Shown here piece by piece: positions 9,323 through 24,000 of a stretch of DNA of 24,000 nucleotides. Each line of letters opens with the position of its first letter. Position 1 is the first letter of the stretch. Source of the stretch: Parcubacteria group bacterium. Lineage in GTDB: Bacteria > Patescibacteriota > Minisyncoccia > Phycocordibacterales > JABMNX01. The stretch spans positions 2,340-26,339 of the forward strand of contig JADHUY010000007.1 in NCBI GenBank assembly GCA_016784305.1. The letters are read 5' to 3'. The notes under the pieces are model-generated. The model was not told the DNA's origin. It saw nothing but the letters and a program-made list of their open reading frames with translations, and searched no databases. A program made the translations under genes and the position numbers.

Positions 9323-9377
9323 AATCATATATTAATTTCATATTCTACAAACCCAATATTCTATAGCTAAGTCCAAT

Positions 9378-9427
9378 AGCACAACACCAGAACCTTGCGA
9401 TATATCGCAAGGTTCTGGTGTTGTGCT
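9378..9427. repeat. 50-nt perfect palindrome between divergent genes
   Basis: agcacaacaccagaaccttgcgata | tatcgcaaggttctggtgttgtgct, with the 25-nt arms checked base by base. The core ccttgcgatatatcgcaagg is related to the hairpin at 17530-17549. Confidence 0.9.
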
Positions 9428-9477
9428 TATTAAGTTTCTTATGTCTACGTATAACAACTCTGTGATACGATTTCAGT

Positions 9478-9786
9478 ATGTACAATCCCCAAAACCTAAA
9501 TGAGTGTGAGAAGGAGAAGAAGTATAAAAAAAGAAAGTTCGCTGACTCCGCAATGGTGGTAATTGGCGTTGTTGCATCTCTTTCAAGCATCCCGCAAGTC
9601 TTAAAGATAATAGAAACTGGCACAGTCGCCGGACTTTCTTTTGCAACACAAGCCATAGCCCTTACCACAGTTATAGCTTGGTTTTCCTATGGCATTTATA
9701 TCAAAAACAAACCGCTTATCATCACCACAGGAATATCAACAATCGTTTTATTTATTGTCATTATCCAAATGCTCTACTACGCTTAA
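9478..9786 (+). CDS. SemiSWEET-like PQ-loop small membrane transporter
   Basis: Three predicted TM helices with the SSIPQVLKIIETG PQ-loop motif. The true start may be the internal Met at 9553 (MVVIGV...). Confidence 0.65.
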   Translation: MYNPQNLNECEKEKKYKKRKFADSAMVVIGVVASLSSIPQVLKIIETGTVAGLSFATQAIALTTVIAWFSYGIYIKNKPLIITTGISTIVLFIVIIQMLYYA

Positions 9787-10622: not shown

Positions 10623-10726
10623 ATATATATTTAAAATTAATCTGTTACCTCTACTCTAACCAGATATTGTTAAATAAGTTTTACGATTTGTAGTGTAACA
10701 CTTGTTTGGGTGCCTGACCTAGAATT

Positions 10727-10768
10727 GGCGTCAGGTCACTAACCTATTACTCCAGTATACTGGAGTAA
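10727..10768 (-). repeat. 18-nt box (ggcgtcaggtcactaacc) plus 22-nt perfect palindrome ttactccagta|tactggagtaa
   Basis: A near-identical module occurs at 17673-17721, with the box matching 17/18 and the same palindrome core. It lies downstream of tRNA-His on the minus strand. Confidence 0.85.
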
Positions 10769-10844
10769 CGCAATGTCATCTTAGTAGGGTGCACCCATCC
10801 GGGTACACTGCAGAAATCATAGTCGCTCTGCTCCTTATTTCTGG

Positions 10845-10916
10845 GTGCCTACCGGGAATTGAACCCGGATTTGAGGTTCCACAAACCTCTGTAATAACCG
10901 TTATACCATAGGCACC
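10845..10916 (-). tRNA. tRNA-His (anticodon GTG) with encoded G-1
   Basis: Manual fold of the reverse complement:
- G-1 followed by acceptor GTGCCTA/TAGGCAC.
- Anticodon arm GAGGT-TTGTGGA-ACCTC.
- T arm CCGGG-TTCAATT-CCCGG.
- Discriminator C. Confidence 0.85.
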
Positions 10917-11049: not shown

Positions 11050-11601
11050 CTATTTATAGTCTGGAGACTCCTCACTTATACCAGATTTATGGTTACTCAG
11101 TCTAGCTAAAGCATAAAGTAATGAGGATAGCCTGTTTAAATACGCCAGCGTGTGTTCTCCCATCTTTGCATTTTTACTCTCTACAACCTCTATTGTGCGC
11201 CTCTCGGCGCGCCTTGCTAGGGTTCTTGCTACATCAAAGCGCGAAGCTAATTCTGTTCCCCCTCCAATAAAGAATGTCTTTATTGGAGGAAGCTCCGTCT
11301 CAATATCATTTATAAGTGTTTCCATCTCTTTTAGCTTCTCCTCCTTTATAGTCTTGTCTGCGCCAGCAAGCTCCGCCTGAACAATAAAAAGGTCTTTCTG
11401 CACATCATGAACAAGTATTTCAACACTACTTCCCAAGACTGAAATATCATATTTCTCTGCCTCAACCTTAACAAGCCCAAGAAAAGAATTAAGTTCATCC
11501 AGTGTGCCAAGAGCCTCTACAACAGAAGAAGCTTTTGACATTTTCTTATCACTTCCAAAAACCTTAGTCTTCCCTTTATCTCCCTTTCCAGTAAAAAGCA
11601 T
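11050..11601 (-). CDS. PduO-type ATP:cob(I)alamin adenosyltransferase family protein
   Basis: TGKGDKGKTKVFG...VVEALGTLDELNSFLGLV...RTLARRAERR is the typical PduO/MMAB family pattern. Confidence 0.8.
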   Translation of the reverse strand: MLFTGKGDKGKTKVFGSDKKMSKASSVVEALGTLDELNSFLGLVKVEAEKYDISVLGSSVEILVHDVQKDLFIVQAELAGADKTIKEEKLKEMETLINDIETELPPIKTFFIGGGTELASRFDVARTLARRAERRTIEVVESKNAKMGEHTLAYLNRLSSLLYALARLSNHKSGISEESPDYK

Positions 11602-17558: not shown

Positions 17559-17567
17559 TTTAAAAAT

Positions 17568-17593
17568 TAACTTTAGAGCTAGCTCTAAAGTTA
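17568..17593. repeat. 26-nt perfect palindrome taactttagagct|agctctaaagtta
   Basis: Arms checked base by base. A related copy lies at 23461-23492. Confidence 0.9.
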
Positions 17594-17618
17594 GTTCAGA
17601 AGTTTAAACGTAAATACT

Positions 17619-17662
17619 AATTTGTACGATACCTGCCTGCGCAGGCAGGTATCGTACAAATT
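17619..17662. repeat. 44-nt perfect palindrome aatttgtacgatacctgcctgc|gcaggcaggtatcgtacaaatt
   Basis: Arms checked base by base. The second copy at 23421-23464 differs only by a compensated A>G / T>C pair. Confidence 0.95.
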
Positions 17663-17672
17663 GTGAGAGATC

Positions 17673-17721
17673 GGCGTCAGCTCACTAACCACAATTACTC
17701 CAGTATACTGGAGTAATTGTG
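17673..17721 (-). repeat. 18-nt box (ggcgtcagctcactaacc) plus 32-nt perfect palindrome cacaattactccagta|tactggagtaattgtg
   Basis: Homologous to 10727-10768. Confidence 0.9.
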
Positions 17722-17758
17722 TAAGTGGCTCCTACCCAGACTCCTTCGCAATCTTTGT

Positions 17759-17794
17759 GGCGTCAGGTTTCTAACCTGCCTGCCGGCAGGCAGG
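17759..17794 (-). repeat. third copy of the box (ggcgtcaggtttctaacc) fused to a 20-nt perfect palindrome cctgcctgcc|ggcaggcagg
   Basis: The box matches the 10727 copy at 16/18 positions. The palindrome shares the cctgcctgc/gcaggcagg core with 17631-17650 and 23433-23452. Confidence 0.85.
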
Positions 17795-17851
17795 ACTCGC
17801 AGGCTCGTTAAGGACCTCCTGCCCGGGCAAGTTTACCTTGTGGTCACCCGT

Positions 17852-17887
17852 CACTAAGTATTTTTCATGAATTCAAAATACTAAGTG
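17852..17887. repeat. 13-bp hairpin (one mismatch) cactaagtatttt...aaaatactaagtg
   Basis: 12 of 13 positions pair, with the loop tcatgaattc. On the minus strand its 3' arm supplies a CTTAGTGAC box. Confidence 0.75.
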
Positions 17888-17948
17888 CGCTCGACCCCGG
17901 CTCGCCTTCGCGCTTCGCGCAATATGGCTCCGCCTGACACCAAGGCAC

Positions 17949-17970
17949 GGAAGCAAAGTAGTTTGCTTCC
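17949..17970. repeat. 9-bp hairpin ggaagcaaa-gtag-tttgcttcc
   Basis: Related to the longer hairpin at 23089-23136 (aggcacgRaagcaaagYagtttgcttYc). Confidence 0.8.
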
Positions 17971-17971
17971 T

Positions 17972-18010
17972 AAACAAAAAGGGCGCGCAAATTGCGCGCC
18001 CTTTTTGTTT
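17972..18010. terminator. bidirectional rho-independent terminator, 19-bp perfect GC-cored stem flanked by A/T runs
   Basis: aaacaaaaagggcgcgcaa-a-ttgcgcgccctttttgttt lies immediately 3' of tRNA-Arg(TCT) on the minus strand. Confidence 0.8.
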
Positions 18011-18014
18011 ACCT

Positions 18015-18089
18015 TGGTGTCCCCACGAGGAATCGAACCTCGATCTGCAGCTTAGAAGGCTGATGCTCTATCCGTTGAGCTATAGGGAC
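18015..18089 (-). tRNA. tRNA-Arg (anticodon TCT), CCA encoded
   Basis: Manual fold:
- Acceptor GTCCCTA/TGGGGAC.
- D arm GCTC-AACGGATA-GAGC.
- Anticodon loop CTTCTAA.
- T arm CGAGG-TTCGATT-CCTCG.
- 3' end A-CCA. Confidence 0.85.
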
Positions 18090-20831: not shown

Positions 20832-22046
20832 CTAAAACTCTTCAAAGCTAGGAGTTAATGTTACGGTCGTATTTTCTGTCCTTATATTTCTTGTAGTTTG
20901 GCACGTTAGTGTATATGTACTTTCTTCTACGATTGGTGCAGTTACTTGAGAACCATCTTTCCCTGTGGCACTAAAGTTTGGGCCTGTTACTGAACAAGAA
21001 ATAATGTCATCATCCCCAAGCGTTGACCACGTGATTAATGATGTGTCTCCTGGTTTAACCTTATCTGGGTCAGCCGAAATATCTAGAACCGGCCAGAATA
21101 CACTTACATCAACTGACGCCTGTCCTCCGTTTGAACACACTACAATAAACTGTGTATCTATTGTTGGAGAAACCTGAACAGACCCAGAGGTAGCACCTCC
21201 TGTTGAGAAATTAGAGCCAGAGCTAGATGTTGAGTTTGAACAAGACCAAGTAAGTGTCGCTGACTGGCCTAGGATTACCTCAGGTTTATTAGTTGAAAAA
21301 GATGGTGGCGTCGGCACACACCCAGATTCGGCTGGAGTACTAGCCGAGCATGAGCCATTACATTGAATGGTTCCACTGTTTGTCTGACCGCACGAGTTGG
21401 CCGCTGACTGACAACTGTTGCCATATCCGCTCGGGTTAGAAGGAGTGCTGGCAGAACATGAGCCATTACATTGGATAGCCCCGGCTGAAGTCTGTCCACA
21501 AGCATTCGCAGATGAGTAGCAAGTGTTGCCGTAGCCACTAGGATTAGATGGAGTGCTTGCGGAGCATGAACCATTACATTGGATTGTTCCGCTATTTCTT
21601 TGACCGCATGAATTATATGAAGAGTAGCAAGTATTACCGTAACCGCTAGGATTAGACGGAGTGCTTGCCGAACATGATCCATTACATTGAATGGTTCCGC
21701 TGTTTCTTTGACCGCATGAGTTACTACTTGAATAGCAGGTGTTGCCATATCCGCTTGGATTTGGCGGAGCACTGCTTACAGAGCAGTTGCCACTACAATC
21801 AATCGTGCCACTTGTTCTTTGGCTACATGAGTTGTATGAAGAATAACAGGTTTGCCCAACATTGCCTTCGCACCCACCAAAAGCACCGGCAGCATCAGCA
21901 TCAGCACCACTTCCATCCCCAGGTCCACTATCACCATCAGCAAAAACAGTCCCGACTGCTAAAAATGAAAAACTTAGGATCGCAACCGCAACGAACACAA
22001 TAAATATTAGAAATTTAAAGTGGCTATATGTATTCTTTATTATCAT
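20832..22046 (-). CDS. secreted cysteine-rich tandem-repeat surface protein with two C-terminal Ig-like/beta-sandwich-type domains
   Basis: An N-terminal signal/anchor is followed by five 36-aa units (PSNPSGYGNTCYSSxNSCGQRNSGTIQCNGSCSAST, spacing C-x6-C-x9-C-x3-C). The C-terminal ~160 aa is paralogous to the CDS at 23515-24000. Confidence 0.75.
   Translation of the reverse strand: MIIKNTYSHFKFLIFIVFVAVAILSFSFLAVGTVFADGDSGPGDGSGADADAAGAFGGCEGNVGQTCYSSYNSCSQRTSGTIDCSGNCSVSSAPPNPSGYGNTCYSSSNSCGQRNSGTIQCNGSCSASTPSNPSGYGNTCYSSYNSCGQRNSGTIQCNGSCSASTPSNPSGYGNTCYSSANACGQTSAGAIQCNGSCSASTPSNPSGYGNSCQSAANSCGQTNSGTIQCNGSCSASTPAESGCVPTPPSFSTNKPEVILGQSATLTWSCSNSTSSSGSNFSTGGATSGSVQVSPTIDTQFIVVCSNGGQASVDVSVFWPVLDISADPDKVKPGDTSLITWSTLGDDDIISCSVTGPNFSATGKDGSQVTAPIVEESTYTLTCQTTRNIRTENTTVTLTPSFEEF
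21333..21872 (-). repeat. 108-bp in-frame tandem repeat array (about 5 units) inside the Cys-rich gene
   Basis: The marker ccattacatt recurs at 21355, 21463, 21571 and 21679, an exact 108-nt period. A more diverged unit follows. Confidence 0.9.
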
Positions 22047-22848: not shown

Positions 22849-22920
22849 GCCCTCGTAGTTCAAGGGATAGAATACAAGTTTGCGGAACTTGCGATCCAGG
22901 TTCGAATCCTGGCGAGGGCA
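22849..22920 (+). tRNA. tRNA-Arg (anticodon GCG)
   Basis: Manual fold:
- Acceptor GCCCTCG/CGAGGGC.
- D arm GTTC-AAGGGATA-GAAT.
- Anticodon arm CAAGT-TTGCGGA-ACTTG.
- T arm CCAGG-TTCGAAT-CCTGG.
- Discriminator A. Confidence 0.8.
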
Positions 22921-22923
22921 CAT
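22908..22923 (+). repeat. 16-nt direct repeat, copy 1 (tRNA-Arg-GCG 3' end plus 3 nt)
   Basis: cctggcgagggcacat is identical to 23080-23095. Confidence 0.9.
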
Positions 22924-22948
22924 GAGTGAGGCACGAGCGAATGTGCCC
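22916..22948 (+). repeat. 8-bp hairpin that uses the tRNA-Arg(GCG) 3' end as its left arm
   Basis: The left arm is gggcacat (22916-22923). The loop is gagtgaggcacgagcga. The right arm is atgtgccc (22941-22948). Confidence 0.7.
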
Positions 22949-22953
22949 GAGGA

Positions 22954-22975
22954 GAAGTGTGCTTGCGCACACTTC
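22954..22975. repeat. 9-bp perfect hairpin gaagtgtgc-ttgc-gcacacttc
   Basis: Checked base by base. Confidence 0.85.
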
Positions 22976-23079
22976 GTCAGGATTCGAACGCCGGAACATG
23001 TCCCGAGGTCTACGAGGGACAGTGAGGTGTGTCCCGCGGTACTTAGCGAGTTTACGAGCTTAGTGACCGTCAGGACGAA

Positions 23080-23095
23080 CCTGGCGAGGGCACAT
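23080..23095 (+). repeat. 16-nt direct repeat, copy 2, preceded by a degenerate T-arm
   Basis: cctggcgagggcacat is preceded by gtcaggacgaa, compared with ccaggttcgaat in the real tRNA. The segment 23063-23093 folds as about 12 bp of stacked helices (GTGACC+GTCAGG / CCTGGC+GGGCAC). Confidence 0.85.
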
Positions 23096-23136
23096 AGGCA
23101 CGAAAGCAAAGCAGTTTGCTTTCGTGCCTATGTGCC
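23089..23136. repeat. 22-bp perfect hairpin ggcacataggcacgaaagcaaa-gcag-tttgctttcgtgcctatgtgcc
   Basis: Checked base by base. It is homologous to 17946-17970, with G>A / C>T changes that keep the pairing. Confidence 0.9.
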
Positions 23137-23148
23137 AAACGGAATGAT

Positions 23149-23177
23149 GTTTCTTTCTCTTTCCTAAAGAAAGAAAC
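23149..23177. repeat. 10-bp hairpin gtttctttct-ctttcctaa-agaaagaaac
   Basis: Checked base by base. Confidence 0.8.
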
Positions 23178-23209
23178 GAATGAGTTCGGGGAGGGAGTTC
23201 TTGGGAACG

Positions 23210-23233
23210 TAGTGACCTAGAAACTCGACCCCA
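23210..23233 (+). repeat. direct repeat copy 1: tagtgacctagaaactcgacccca
   Basis: The first 15 nt are identical to 23302-23316, and 21 of 24 nt match overall. It carries the TAGTGACC box. Confidence 0.85.
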
Positions 23234-23301
23234 CAATTGCACCCATCACTAACTCGCTATCGCTGCTAAGCGATGTGTGGTCGAATCCTATTTATAAAAC
23301 A

Positions 23302-23325
23302 TAGTGACCTAGAAACCCAACTCCA
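23302..23325 (+). repeat. direct repeat copy 2: tagtgacctagaaacccaactcca
   Basis: See 23210-23233. The copies are spaced 92 nt apart. Confidence 0.85.
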
Positions 23326-23338
23326 AATCTTAAAACAT

Positions 23339-23367
23339 AAAACCATACGATATATCATAGTGGTTTT
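23339..23367. repeat. imperfect hairpin aaaaccatacgatatatcatagtggtttt (CGAT-core family)
   Basis: Resembles 17526-17553 (aaaaccttacgatgtatcgtaaggtttt) but has a bulge and a mismatch. Confidence 0.6.
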
Positions 23368-23420
23368 GTGTTTCAATAATTAACTCTTGAGTTGATTCAA
23401 TAGTAACAGACAAACACCTA

Positions 23421-23464
23421 AATTTGTGCGATACCTGCCTGCGCAGGCAGGTATCGCACAAATT
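23421..23464. repeat. 44-nt perfect palindrome aatttgtgcgatacctgcctgc|gcaggcaggtatcgcacaaatt
   Basis: The second copy of 17619-17662. It probably also serves as the terminator of the minus-strand gene that ends at 23515. Confidence 0.95.
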
Positions 23465-23492
23465 AACTCCAGAGCTAGCTCTAGAGTTAATT
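23461..23492. repeat. 32-nt palindrome (one mismatch) aattaactccagagct|agctctagagttaatt
   Basis: Related to 17568-17593. It overlaps the previous palindrome by the 4 nt aatt. Confidence 0.85.
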
Positions 23493-23514
23493 CTGTACAC
23501 TTCAAAAATTAAAT

Positions 23515-24000
23515 TTAAAACTCCTCAAACGCAGGCACTAGCTTCACAGTTGCGTCCACAGACAAAGTATTCTCTGTTGTAGGACACGTAAGTGTGTACG
23601 TACTCTCCTCGGTTATGGGTGCTGTCACCTTTGAGCCACTCTTTCCACTTGCAAAGAAATTAGGACCAGAGACTGAACAAGAAAGAATGTCATCATCCCC
23701 TAGTGTTGACCAGGTGATTAATGAAACATTCTCCGCTTTCACTCTCGTTGGATTAGCTGAAATATTTAATACTGGCCAAAATACATTTACGTTAACAAAG
23801 TTCTGTCCCCCATTGGAGCAAATCACCGTAAATTGCGTACTTATAACTGGAGAAACTACTACAGAGCCAGAAGGCGCACCACCAGTTGAGAAGTTCACAC
23901 CCGAACTTGATGTTGAGTCTACACAAGCAAATGTAAGAGTTGCGGAGTTCCCTCCGATTATAGATATGTTGCCTCCAGGTCCACTACCACCATTTCCAGA
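23515..24000 (-). CDS. paralog of the Cys-rich surface protein, C-terminal part (CDS continues past the right edge)
   Basis: The frame stays open to position 24000. It reads SGNGGSGPGGNISIIGGNSATLTFACVDSTSSSGVNFSTGG... and aligns with VILGQSATLTWSCSNSTSSSGSNFSTGG... of the 20832-22046 protein. Both proteins end in FEEF. The M at 23898 in the ORF track is an internal GTG. Confidence 0.8.
   Translation of the reverse strand, partial: SGNGGSGPGGNISIIGGNSATLTFACVDSTSSSGVNFSTGGAPSGSVVVSPVISTQFTVICSNGGQNFVNVNVFWPVLNISANPTRVKAENVSLITWSTLGDDDILSCSVSGPNFFASGKSGSKVTAPITEESTYTLTCPTTENTLSVDATVKLVPAFEEF

Follow-up and report, generated by a model that had tools for sequence, protein, structure and literature searches.

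A repeated tRNA-Arg(TCT) 3' end belongs to one old copy of a small, structured and apparently undescribed tRNA-gene element family of Patescibacteria

Why should the 3' end of a tRNA gene recur a short way downstream of the gene, with an inverted copy of it in between? The question is raised by tRNA-Arg(TCT) in a 24,000-nt stretch of a Parcubacteria/Paceibacterota metagenome-assembled genome (MAG; contig JADHUY010000007.1, positions 2,340–26,339; hereafter the window), which has 41% G+C overall and six tRNA genes according to ARAGORN and Rfam. An earlier note, made from the letters alone, had described these repeats at 17831–18024 and likened them to an arrangement at tRNA-Arg(GCG). We find that the repeat is real and is part of one old copy, here called E1, of a family of small structured elements at tRNA genes of Patescibacteria (Paceibacterota and Kaiserbacteria). 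The family is apparently undescribed so far, and a full-text literature search did not find such elements described. Our preferred reading, which we consider probable, is that 17831–18014 is an old copy of a small, non-coding and non-autonomous cassette that inserts at tRNA genes. The coordinates of all features are collected in Table 1.

On the minus strand the tRNA ends GGGGACACCAAGGTAAAC (18024–18007), the near-repeat GGGTGACCACAAGGTAAAC (17849–17831) stands directly after the box CTTAGTGAC (17858–17850), and the inverted 10-mer GACACCAAGG is complementary to the tRNA 3' end CCTTGGTGTC (18012–18021). All of these strings and coordinates had been quoted exactly. The hairpin and the terminator that this pairing would enclose are also present, the latter being found by a terminator scan as well, and 17881–17940 does contain 40 G+C. 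Some details needed revision. The long hairpin lies where it had been placed, with 12 pairs and one T.T mismatch rather than 13 pairs, and the exact shared core has the claimed 10 nt, CAAGGTAAAC, of which only nine letters had been written out. The claim of a downstream tRNA-end repeat stands for the right part of the near-repeat, where ACAAGGTAAAC (17841–17831) matches A73-CCA-AGGTAAAC (18018–18007), so that the true target repeat is A(C)CAAGGTAAAC. The left part, GGGTGACC, whose GGGTGAC segment had been likened to GGGGAC, is rejected as a tRNA copy. It belongs to the element's own terminal box, because its terminal ACC pairs with an internal GGT and this pair covaries across the family.

At the TCT locus the exact matches are short (10 nt in direct and 10 nt in inverted orientation; at the GCG locus the exact direct repeat has 16 nt), as would be expected if the segment were ordinary spacer with a chance resemblance to the tRNA end and unrelated terminator hairpins. 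By our own arithmetic, however, a given 10-mer recurs within 700 nt with p ~7e-4. For ten of 22 non-redundant tRNAs of the clade the 3' end is copied downstream in direct orientation over 9 nt or more, against one in an equal-sized upstream control. The fold of the 194-nt stretch has z = -9.9, and its minimum-free-energy structure contains the pairing of tRNA end and inverted copy that the earlier note had proposed. Repeats internal to the window already tied the Arg(TCT), Arg(GCG) and His loci together.

When one genome per species was scanned for the box GGTTAGTGASCTGACGCC, six Patescibacteria loci were obtained, the clearest of which have the box followed by an exact 18–21-nt copy of the 3' part of the adjacent upstream tRNA, starting in the T-loop. 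A covariance model (R1) built from 12 aligned cores finds five copies in the window, with E-values from 1e-19 to 1e-5. Among them are the Arg(TCT) and Arg(GCG) cassettes, which do share an architecture as had been supposed, and three further copies (E2, E3 and GCG-2); this search, which the earlier note had suggested, also found tRNA-adjacent copies in dozens of Patescibacteria contigs. The proposed parallel between the two Arg loci thus holds for the architecture, and the counterpart of the TCT cassette is the second element at Arg(GCG), GCG-2 (with the hairpin 23089–23136), not the first, GCG-1. The third proposed member, at tRNA-His, is decayed and hardly scored by the model, but it still has a 44-nt block in common with 17670–17717, within E3.

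For metagenomes, a first search pattern, GCCACTTNC..GGTTAGTGASCTGACGCC, gave 0 matches even though it matched the known loci, and a second, spanning the subfamilies, gave 120 contigs. Run over all loci, R1 identified 82 non-identical cores at 59 Patescibacteria loci. For 53 of the 82, a tRNA on the same strand lies no more than 150 nt upstream, which holds for ~1% of strand positions, and 30 isoacceptors are represented; the tRNA link had not been built into the metagenome pattern. The orientation of the core is always that of the tRNA. One architecture at so many isoacceptors and loci, the model E-values, the nearly empty upstream control and the conservation of the cassette in a relative (see below) refute the chance explanation, which keeps virtually no probability. 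A known RNA family is likewise rejected, as only tRNAs reach the Rfam 15 gathering score in the window. Permissive Rfam scans of both Arg loci gave hairpin noise far under the gathering scores, and in six canonical loci Rfam recognised nothing besides tRNAs and a single group I intron. Such an intron (Intron_gpI, 80.8 bits; L090:4200–4700, minus; L numbers denote our contigs and loci) splits the anticodon loop of a tRNA-Phe(GAA) gene that ARAGORN overlooked and that is followed by a complete cassette.

On the tRNA-sense strand, a canonical locus begins with an intact tRNA up to T54-T55-C56. There follow copy 1 of the tRNA 3' part, from R57 to 1–6 nt or more beyond the discriminator; a terminator hairpin, distinct in each unit; the 3' part again in inverted orientation, which a conserved hairpin, H2 (GCAAA-CTGC-TTTGC), often interrupts where acceptor and T-stem meet; the triplet GAA in T-loop-type copies; a core of ~95 nt, comprising AGNCGGAG, hairpin A, GAG-N-CCGGGCAGGAG-CCACTTA.., a variable hairpin B and ..TTAGTGAGCTGACGCC; and finally copy 3, identical to copy 1. 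The H2 module recurs in L017, L020, L025, L063, L090 and L108, as well as at 23099–23126 of the window. An exact 16–40-nt copy of upstream sequence follows 35 cores, and in 29 of the 35 the 5' T-loop sequence NGTTC stands just before the upstream copy. The insertion point is usually C56^R57 of the T-loop (^ marks a junction), with consensus junctions GAA^AGNCGGAG and CTGACGCC^RANNC.

A second class, with insertion at C72^R73 (position 73 being the discriminator), includes E1, GCG-2, the L025 copies, L031 and L076. Accordingly, the target copy begins at the discriminator in the TCT cassette and at the T-loop in the first GCG cassette. In both classes the inverted copy extends 3 nt beyond the reach of the direct copy, and in E1 these 3 nt extend across the insertion point. 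The triplet before a discriminator-type core is GTC in E1 and L025 and GCC in GCG-2, each checked to be the complement of the local 3 nt; GTG in L031 and GCT in L076 are read likewise. Since these triplets match their own targets, the 3-nt extension is target-derived in both classes, and GAA as a part of the core is rejected. Also rejected is TGGGTGC in the His cassette as an inverted target copy, which alignment assigns to a decayed GGGCAGGAGCC core segment.

Table 1. Positions of the tRNA genes, cassettes and cassette parts discussed in the text, in window coordinates.
Feature	Position	Strand	Evidence and remarks
tRNA-Arg(TCT), target gene	18015–18089	minus	intact, CCA encoded; ARAGORN; Rfam tRNA 68.8 bits
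Target copy 1, A73-CCA and trailer ACCAAGGTAAAC	18007–18018	minus	sequence
GAC just 5' of copy 1, mirrored in the E1 inverted copy	18021–18019	minus	sequence
Intrinsic-terminator hairpin at Arg(TCT)	17972–18010	minus	repeat I15; terminator scan
H2 hairpin GGAAGCAAACTACTTTGCTTCC	17949–17970	minus	family module GCAAA-CTGC/CTAC-TTTGC
E1 inverted target copy CCTTGGT+GTC	17936–17945	minus	reverse complement of GAC^ACCAAGG
E1 core	17842–17935	minus	covariance model 78.9 bits (match 17842–17937); covariation
E1 5' domain: GGC-G-GA-GCC, hairpin A, GGC-GA-GCC	17899–17934	minus	covariation
E1 long irregular hairpin B	17852–17887	minus	closed by GGT (within 17888–17898) pairing with ACC (17842–17844)
E1 terminal box CTTAGTGACGGGTGACC	17842–17858	minus	covariance model; covariation
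E1 target copy 3, ACAAGGTAAAC	17831–17841	minus	copy 1 minus one C
E2, older, 5'-truncated	17753–17827	minus	core 17759–17827, end GGTTAGAAACCTGACGCC, then ACAAAG, a discriminator-type remnant; covariance model 24.7 bits (match 17759–17828)
E3, older, 5'-truncated	17663–17744	minus	core 17673–17744, end GGTTAGTGAGCTGACGCC, then GATCTCTCAC, a decayed T-loop-type copy of GATTCCTCGT (full repeat kept in the orthologous L025 copy); covariance model 37.3 bits (match 17673–17758)
tRNA-Arg(GCG) and T-loop-type element GCG-1	22849–23095	plus	ARAGORN; covariance model 56.2 bits (match 22987–23076)
GCG-1 copy 1	22904–22923	plus	
GCG-1 inverted T-loop copy	22976–22988	plus	
GCG-1 core	22989–23076	plus	
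GCG-1 copy 3, GAA-CCTGGCGAGGGCACAT	23077–23095	plus	
GCG-2, second element at Arg(GCG), discriminator-type	23099–23240	plus	covariance model 31.7 bits (match 23166–23232)
GCG-2 H2	23099–23126	plus	
GCG-2 inverted copy CCTATGT+GCC	23127–23136	plus	
GCG-2 core	23137–23232	plus	
GCG-2 target copy ACA..	from 23233	plus	
tRNA-His and decayed element	10707–10915	minus	tRNA-His 10843–10915
His core remnant, end GGTTAGTGACCTGACGCC	10727–10803	minus	only 4 bits with the model
His decayed T-loop-type copy AATTCTAGGTCAGGCACCCA	10707–10726	minus	

RNAalifold on twelve well-aligned cores proposed a single long irregular hairpin, closed by pairing of the element's last three bases with an internal GGC, and this GCC/GGC pair covaries (GGT/ACC, GGG/CCC, GTC/GAC). 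Across 79 distinct sequences, standard pairs occupy 97.4% of pair cells, a fraction somewhat inflated by the fitting of the alignments to the model, as compared to 75.6% in shuffles and 23–48% when the partners are slid; cells changed on both sides number 160, versus 36 in shuffles. The 5' domain consists of two covarying 3-bp helices separated by a conserved G and a tandem G.A loop (GGA/GA). The inner helix occurs as GCC/GGC (12), GTC/GAC (5), GGC/GCC (4), CCC/GGG (4) and others, and the outer as GGC/GCC, GAC/GTC and GCC/GGC. On the tRNA-sense strand there are 14 G.T cells to 5 A.C cells, a mild sign that this is the strand that folds.

Such a fold would also suit a core that is mainly a functional host non-coding RNA, or a cis-acting module of tRNA genes, whose repeats are needed to pair with or to mimic the tRNA end. 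One form might be a tRNA-like RNA: the inverted copy, H2 and the direct copy would together re-create an acceptor/T minihelix, the core taking the place of the T-loop. Another might be a 3'-trailer structure controlling tRNA maturation or termination. The constant orientation relative to the tRNA, the strong helix covariation, a GGA/GA internal loop typical of RNA motifs, the high conservation of unpaired segments and the excess of G.T over A.C cells are all in keeping with this, as is the finding that, in several tRNA contexts independent of one another, H2 sits where the acceptor and T-stem parts of the inverted copy meet.

Comparison with the nearest relative (L025), from a marine Pacebacteria lineage, bears on the same point. 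Its DedA is 74% identical to that of the window, and both the gene order and E1 are as in the window. The orthologous stretch is not the unconserved spacer that the earlier note had allowed for: E1 is identical at 140 of 166 positions (84%) and tRNA-Arg(TCT) at 65 of 73 (89%), while the sequence after E1 is only 45% identical. Differences within E1 lie in the tips of hairpins A and B, with the stems kept. The tRNA end reads GACACCAAGG in the window and GACGCAAAGG in the relative; the inverted copy compensates both changed positions (in the relative, CCTTTGC+GTC matches the tRNA end GAC^GCAAAGG), and copy 3 follows one of them. At this locus the window has 29 additional nucleotides, the terminator centre at 17978–18006 that is missing at the relative's locus, and these complete the terminator. 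This between-species pattern fits either selection on the pairing or site-specific insertion that took place independently, or was refreshed, in each lineage.

The near-tRNA conservation of E1 in two species, with its compensated inverted copy and partly matching direct copy, is the further evidence that a host RNA would explain. However, tRNA and core are usually separated by a strong terminator, and no promoter was detected. In most copies the acceptor-stem part of the inverted copy is degenerate; many tRNAs have no element, and orthologous tRNAs differ in occupancy. Truncated and decayed copies accumulate in arrays, a unit can hold 2.4 kb of cargo, and there is no Rfam match. We therefore consider a host RNA or tRNA-gene module unlikely, and return to insertion cassettes.

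Occupancy of orthologous tRNAs is patchy. tRNA-Val(TAC) and tRNA-Ser(TGA) have no cassette in either the window or its nearest relative and are filled in OZ244961.1 and L079. Near-identical cores occur at Tyr and Trp in one genome (OZ244961.1), and the 106-nt cores of L017 and L020, which show few differences, belong to different tRNAs in different MAGs. Where units form arrays (L079, L127, and the TCT and GCG loci of the window, with three and two elements respectively), the best-preserved unit adjoins the tRNA and each unit has its own terminator; L063 is one unit tandemly duplicated. One copy carries genes: in L072:3964–6579 (minus), tRNA-Pro is followed by 2.4 kb with two open reading frames (ORFs), a methyltransferase of the Methyltransf_11 family and a 351-aa ORF without a Pfam match, then by GC-rich small hairpins, the inverted copy, the core and a 17-nt copy 3, which places the cargo between copy 1 and the inverted copy. 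Taken together, the arrays, the patchy presence at orthologous tRNAs and the cargo copy point to non-autonomous site-specific insertion cassettes. Non-autonomy is supported by the gene content: no ORF lies within the elements, no recombinase recurs within 4 kb of them (287 ORFs clustered from 60 loci gave housekeeping families only), and Pfam annotation of the window neighbourhood gave housekeeping genes only. What follows some cores (L019 Val, L001) is the 3' half of another tRNA, a product that recombination between dispersed cores would yield. In L019, ~308 masked bases (N, 263–570) lie between two copies of a tRNA-Glu 3' part, where a second cassette is expected.

Direct repeats from the T-loop to past the tRNA 3' end are reportedly the classical signature of integration, which is said to use distinct sublocations within tRNA genes. 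The cassettes could accordingly be scars of integrase-mediated integration of larger elements (phage, plasmid or island), with the repeats as attL and attR, the core as the attP arm next to attR, and the rest deleted. The repeats do run from the T-loop to just beyond the tRNA 3' end; their length, from 16 to more than 40 nt and sometimes including a terminator, is expected of attP/attB identity blocks and not of staggered cuts, and L072 has 2.4 kb of genes between the repeats. Yet no integrase was found in or near any of the 59 loci, the small unit size is nearly uniform, unlike the outcome of random deletion, and the fold is strand-specific, covarying and terminates precisely at the junction, a feature for which duplex arm-type sites have no need. 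The T-loop at the right junction opens with GCC, not TTC, so that the usual 7-bp T-loop overlap is not shared, and the inverted copy and its 3-nt offset are left unexplained. There was also no blastn match in 50,697 phage and 72,556 plasmid records and no match to the box pattern in viral contigs, on which grounds a viral origin is rejected as well; the H2 pattern matched 5 viral contigs, most likely as chance hairpins. On this balance integrase scars seem quite improbable.

Two other readings were rejected. In one, resembling TnpB with its omega RNA, the core would be the scaffold of a 3' guide and the T-loop TTC the target-adjacent motif (TAM). This fails because a filled locus keeps both TTC and the target, and would thus target itself, and because discriminator-type sites share no TAM. 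In the other, mature tRNA would be reverse-transcribed up to a stop at m1A58; the copies, however, include trailer bases other than CCA.

Under the preferred reading, the moving unit would consist of copy 1, the terminator, the inverted copy and the core, with the displaced original 3' part of the tRNA following it; copy 1 serves as the replacement 3' part and leaves the tRNA intact. Strand-specific, site-specific recombination would move the whole cassette in one piece, the putative recombination site being the folded core. Two paired trinucleotides may mark the two junctions, NNN' pairing with the target NNN and the internal GGC with the terminal GCC, presumably at sites of cleavage. Catalysis would be supplied in trans by an enzyme not encoded nearby, and new cassettes would enter beside the intact tRNA, pushing older ones downstream into arrays. 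It is conceivable, if rather doubtful, that the folded ~95-nt single-stranded DNA or RNA marks the ends and reads the target by base pairing through the inverted copy and its 3 nt, which would make the family a guide-assisted, tRNA-based analogue of integron cassettes. Family membership, core structure, with a fold that stops exactly at the right junction and has its last trinucleotide paired internally, tRNA association in fixed orientation at two defined positions, junction geometry, restoration of the tRNA by copy 1, arrays, patchy orthologous occupancy and one cargo copy are direct observations; the mechanism we infer, since no recombinase is linked to the elements, and we hold its details with much less confidence than the general model.

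Several points weigh against insertion cassettes as we picture them. Neither a mobilising enzyme nor a circular form was found. No filled/empty polymorphism was seen between close strains; every strain with 99.4–100% identity to the window has its His and TCT cassettes, with differences only after 23096. E1 is more similar between window and relative than DedA is, and its inverted copy co-varies with the tRNA end, which could mean a host-level function. A cassette bearing its own tRNA 3' part should break a different tRNA on moving, so the matching of copy and target is left unexplained. The inverted copy is usually degenerate beyond 8–11 nt even where the direct repeat is perfect, which one simultaneous origin does not predict unless palindromes decay faster. 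Finally, the pattern used for L031–L150 fixes CCGGGCAGGAG and CTGACGCCRA, so that the conservation of these two segments is partly ascertainment, and the covariation alignments were fitted to the model, which affects the slid controls and the number of pair types less than the paired fraction.

The Arg(GCG) locus varies among close strains. Two contigs that are otherwise 99.6–99.8% identical to the window (L001:1–640, L009:1–95) diverge wholly after 23096 (window 23096–23520), past the second copy of the tRNA-Arg(GCG) end. Their sequence there comprises different hairpins, the tRNA-Arg(GCG) 3' part copied perfectly over 23 nt in inverted orientation (GTGCCCTCGCCAGGATTCGAA), a different core and the 3' half of another tRNA, and both contigs break or switch within the palindrome 23089–23136.

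Other repeats and tRNA-associated features were noted in the window and its relatives. A 44-nt perfect palindrome, AATTTGTRCGATACCTGCCTGCGCAGGCAGGTATCGYACAAATT, is found at 17618–17662 and 23421–23465 in copies that are 95% identical, and a neighbouring 34-nt palindrome at 17564–17597 and 23460–23493; each of the two element arrays has both of them at its distal end, and the core model matches neither. At 9378–9427 there is a perfect 50-nt palindrome with 25-nt arms and no spacer, overlapping ORFs 9345–9668 (minus) and 9478–9786 (plus), and the segment 9375–9431 has a 58-nt, 96.6%-identical secondary match in strain contigs in opposite orientation. Four 108-nt tandem repeats (21333–21807, in ORF 20832–22046) encode the Cys/Ser/Gly-rich repeat of a secreted-looking 404-aa protein, the C-terminal part of which has a paralogue in ORF 23515–23898, adjoining the variable region. 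In the nearest relative, a partial 5' copy of tRNA-Val(TAC), GGGCGCTTAGCTCAGTTGGCTAGAG.. (L025:11190–11225), lies ~60 nt upstream of the intact gene (11280–11354); unlike the cassette copies, it is of the 5' side. Also in the relative (L024:14374–15174, minus; equivalents in L027–L029), an ORF weakly matching Zn_ribbon_recom, which is a large-serine-recombinase domain, overlaps tRNA-Leu(GAG) at its 3' end, and a LAGLIDADG-like ORF precedes this tRNA; neither ORF is present at the tRNA-Leu of the window.

Patescibacteria have tiny genomes and single-copy tRNA genes, and their mobile DNA is little known. If the cassette reading is true, one family enters the T-loop or the 3' end of at least 30 tRNA genes, rebuilds the tRNA, stacks and sometimes carries genes. 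A single scaffold serving many essential tRNAs without breaking them would then be a new model of target recognition by small mobile elements, and the precise junctions (direct copy, inverted copy, 3-nt offset and covarying end-pairing) offer hypotheses that are testable in vitro. In practice, the cassettes disrupt metagenome assembly, as L001 and L009 end or diverge inside elements, and partial tRNA copies derived from them can mislead annotation. They may also mediate rearrangements, given that some cores carry the 3' half of a different tRNA behind them.

Among known systems, integron cassettes and their attC sites offer one set of likenesses. There too, a non-coding, strand-specific site is defined by a conserved fold with weak sequence conservation, and the crossover is bracketed by an inverted and a direct copy, the inverted copy crossing the crossover point; cassettes lack their own recombinase, form arrays with the newest unit at the entry site, and can carry genes, as in L072. 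In contrast to integrons, entry here is at a tRNA gene (C56^R57 or C72^R73), where the arrays start, and not at attI; no intI-like gene is adjacent, and the flanks have no recombinase. The RYYYAAC/GTTRRRY core sites of attC are missing, with GTTRRRY absent at the crossover in the consensus junctions, and the 16–40-nt tRNA-specific flanking copies, mostly empty units and two conserved structured core domains have no counterpart in integron cassettes.

Like IS200/IS605-family ends and their miniature derivatives, palindrome-associated transposable elements (PATEs) and repetitive extragenic palindromes (REP) with their bacterial interspersed mosaic elements (BIME), the cassettes are small non-autonomous units defined by strand-specific imperfect hairpins. 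As in IS200/IS605, the 3' boundary lies a few nucleotides past a conserved hairpin, orientation to the target strand is fixed, and a boundary trinucleotide, here a putative cleavage site, pairs and covaries with a 'guide' 5' of the hairpin (GGC/GCC); for both site classes, the 3 nt just 5' of the insertion point have their complement in a second trinucleotide (GAA or others). Hairpins A and B are dissimilar, however, and the hairpins at the left junction are unrelated terminators, which are not conserved. IS200/IS605 elements make no target copies, whereas long direct and inverted ones occur here; the left junction and the left 'guide', rather than two hairpins, enclose the cargo, and no tnpA or tnpB was found near the elements (ORFs within 4 kb).

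Tyrosine-integrase islands and prophages likewise target the 3' part of tRNAs, from the T-loop or the 3' end, rebuild the tRNA with an element-borne copy that leaves the displaced original as a direct repeat, and form tandem arrays. They differ from the cassettes, which measure 130–200 nt without a gene, lack an integrase, possess a folded, covarying core ending at the junction and an extra inverted target copy, and serve at least 30 isoacceptors with one core family; moreover, the right junction, ..GACGCC^GATTC..., has GC and not TT at positions 54–55 and thus no shared 6–8-bp overlap. Bacterial MITEs (miniature inverted-repeat transposable elements), such as Correia and the Rickettsia palindromic elements, resemble the cassettes in being short, non-coding, repeated, structured, dispersed in compact genomes and without a transposase. 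Unlike those of MITEs, the two ends (AGNCGGAG.. and ..CTGACGCC) do not form an inverted repeat, there is no fixed-length target duplication (the repeat is 16 to 40 nt or more), and targeting is strictly to one position in tRNA genes with fixed orientation. The elements thus fall short on the tests that define MITEs, attC sites, IS200/IS605 ends and integrase islands and yet share features with each, combining an unusual junction geometry with a broad target range for a small non-autonomous site-specific insertion element.

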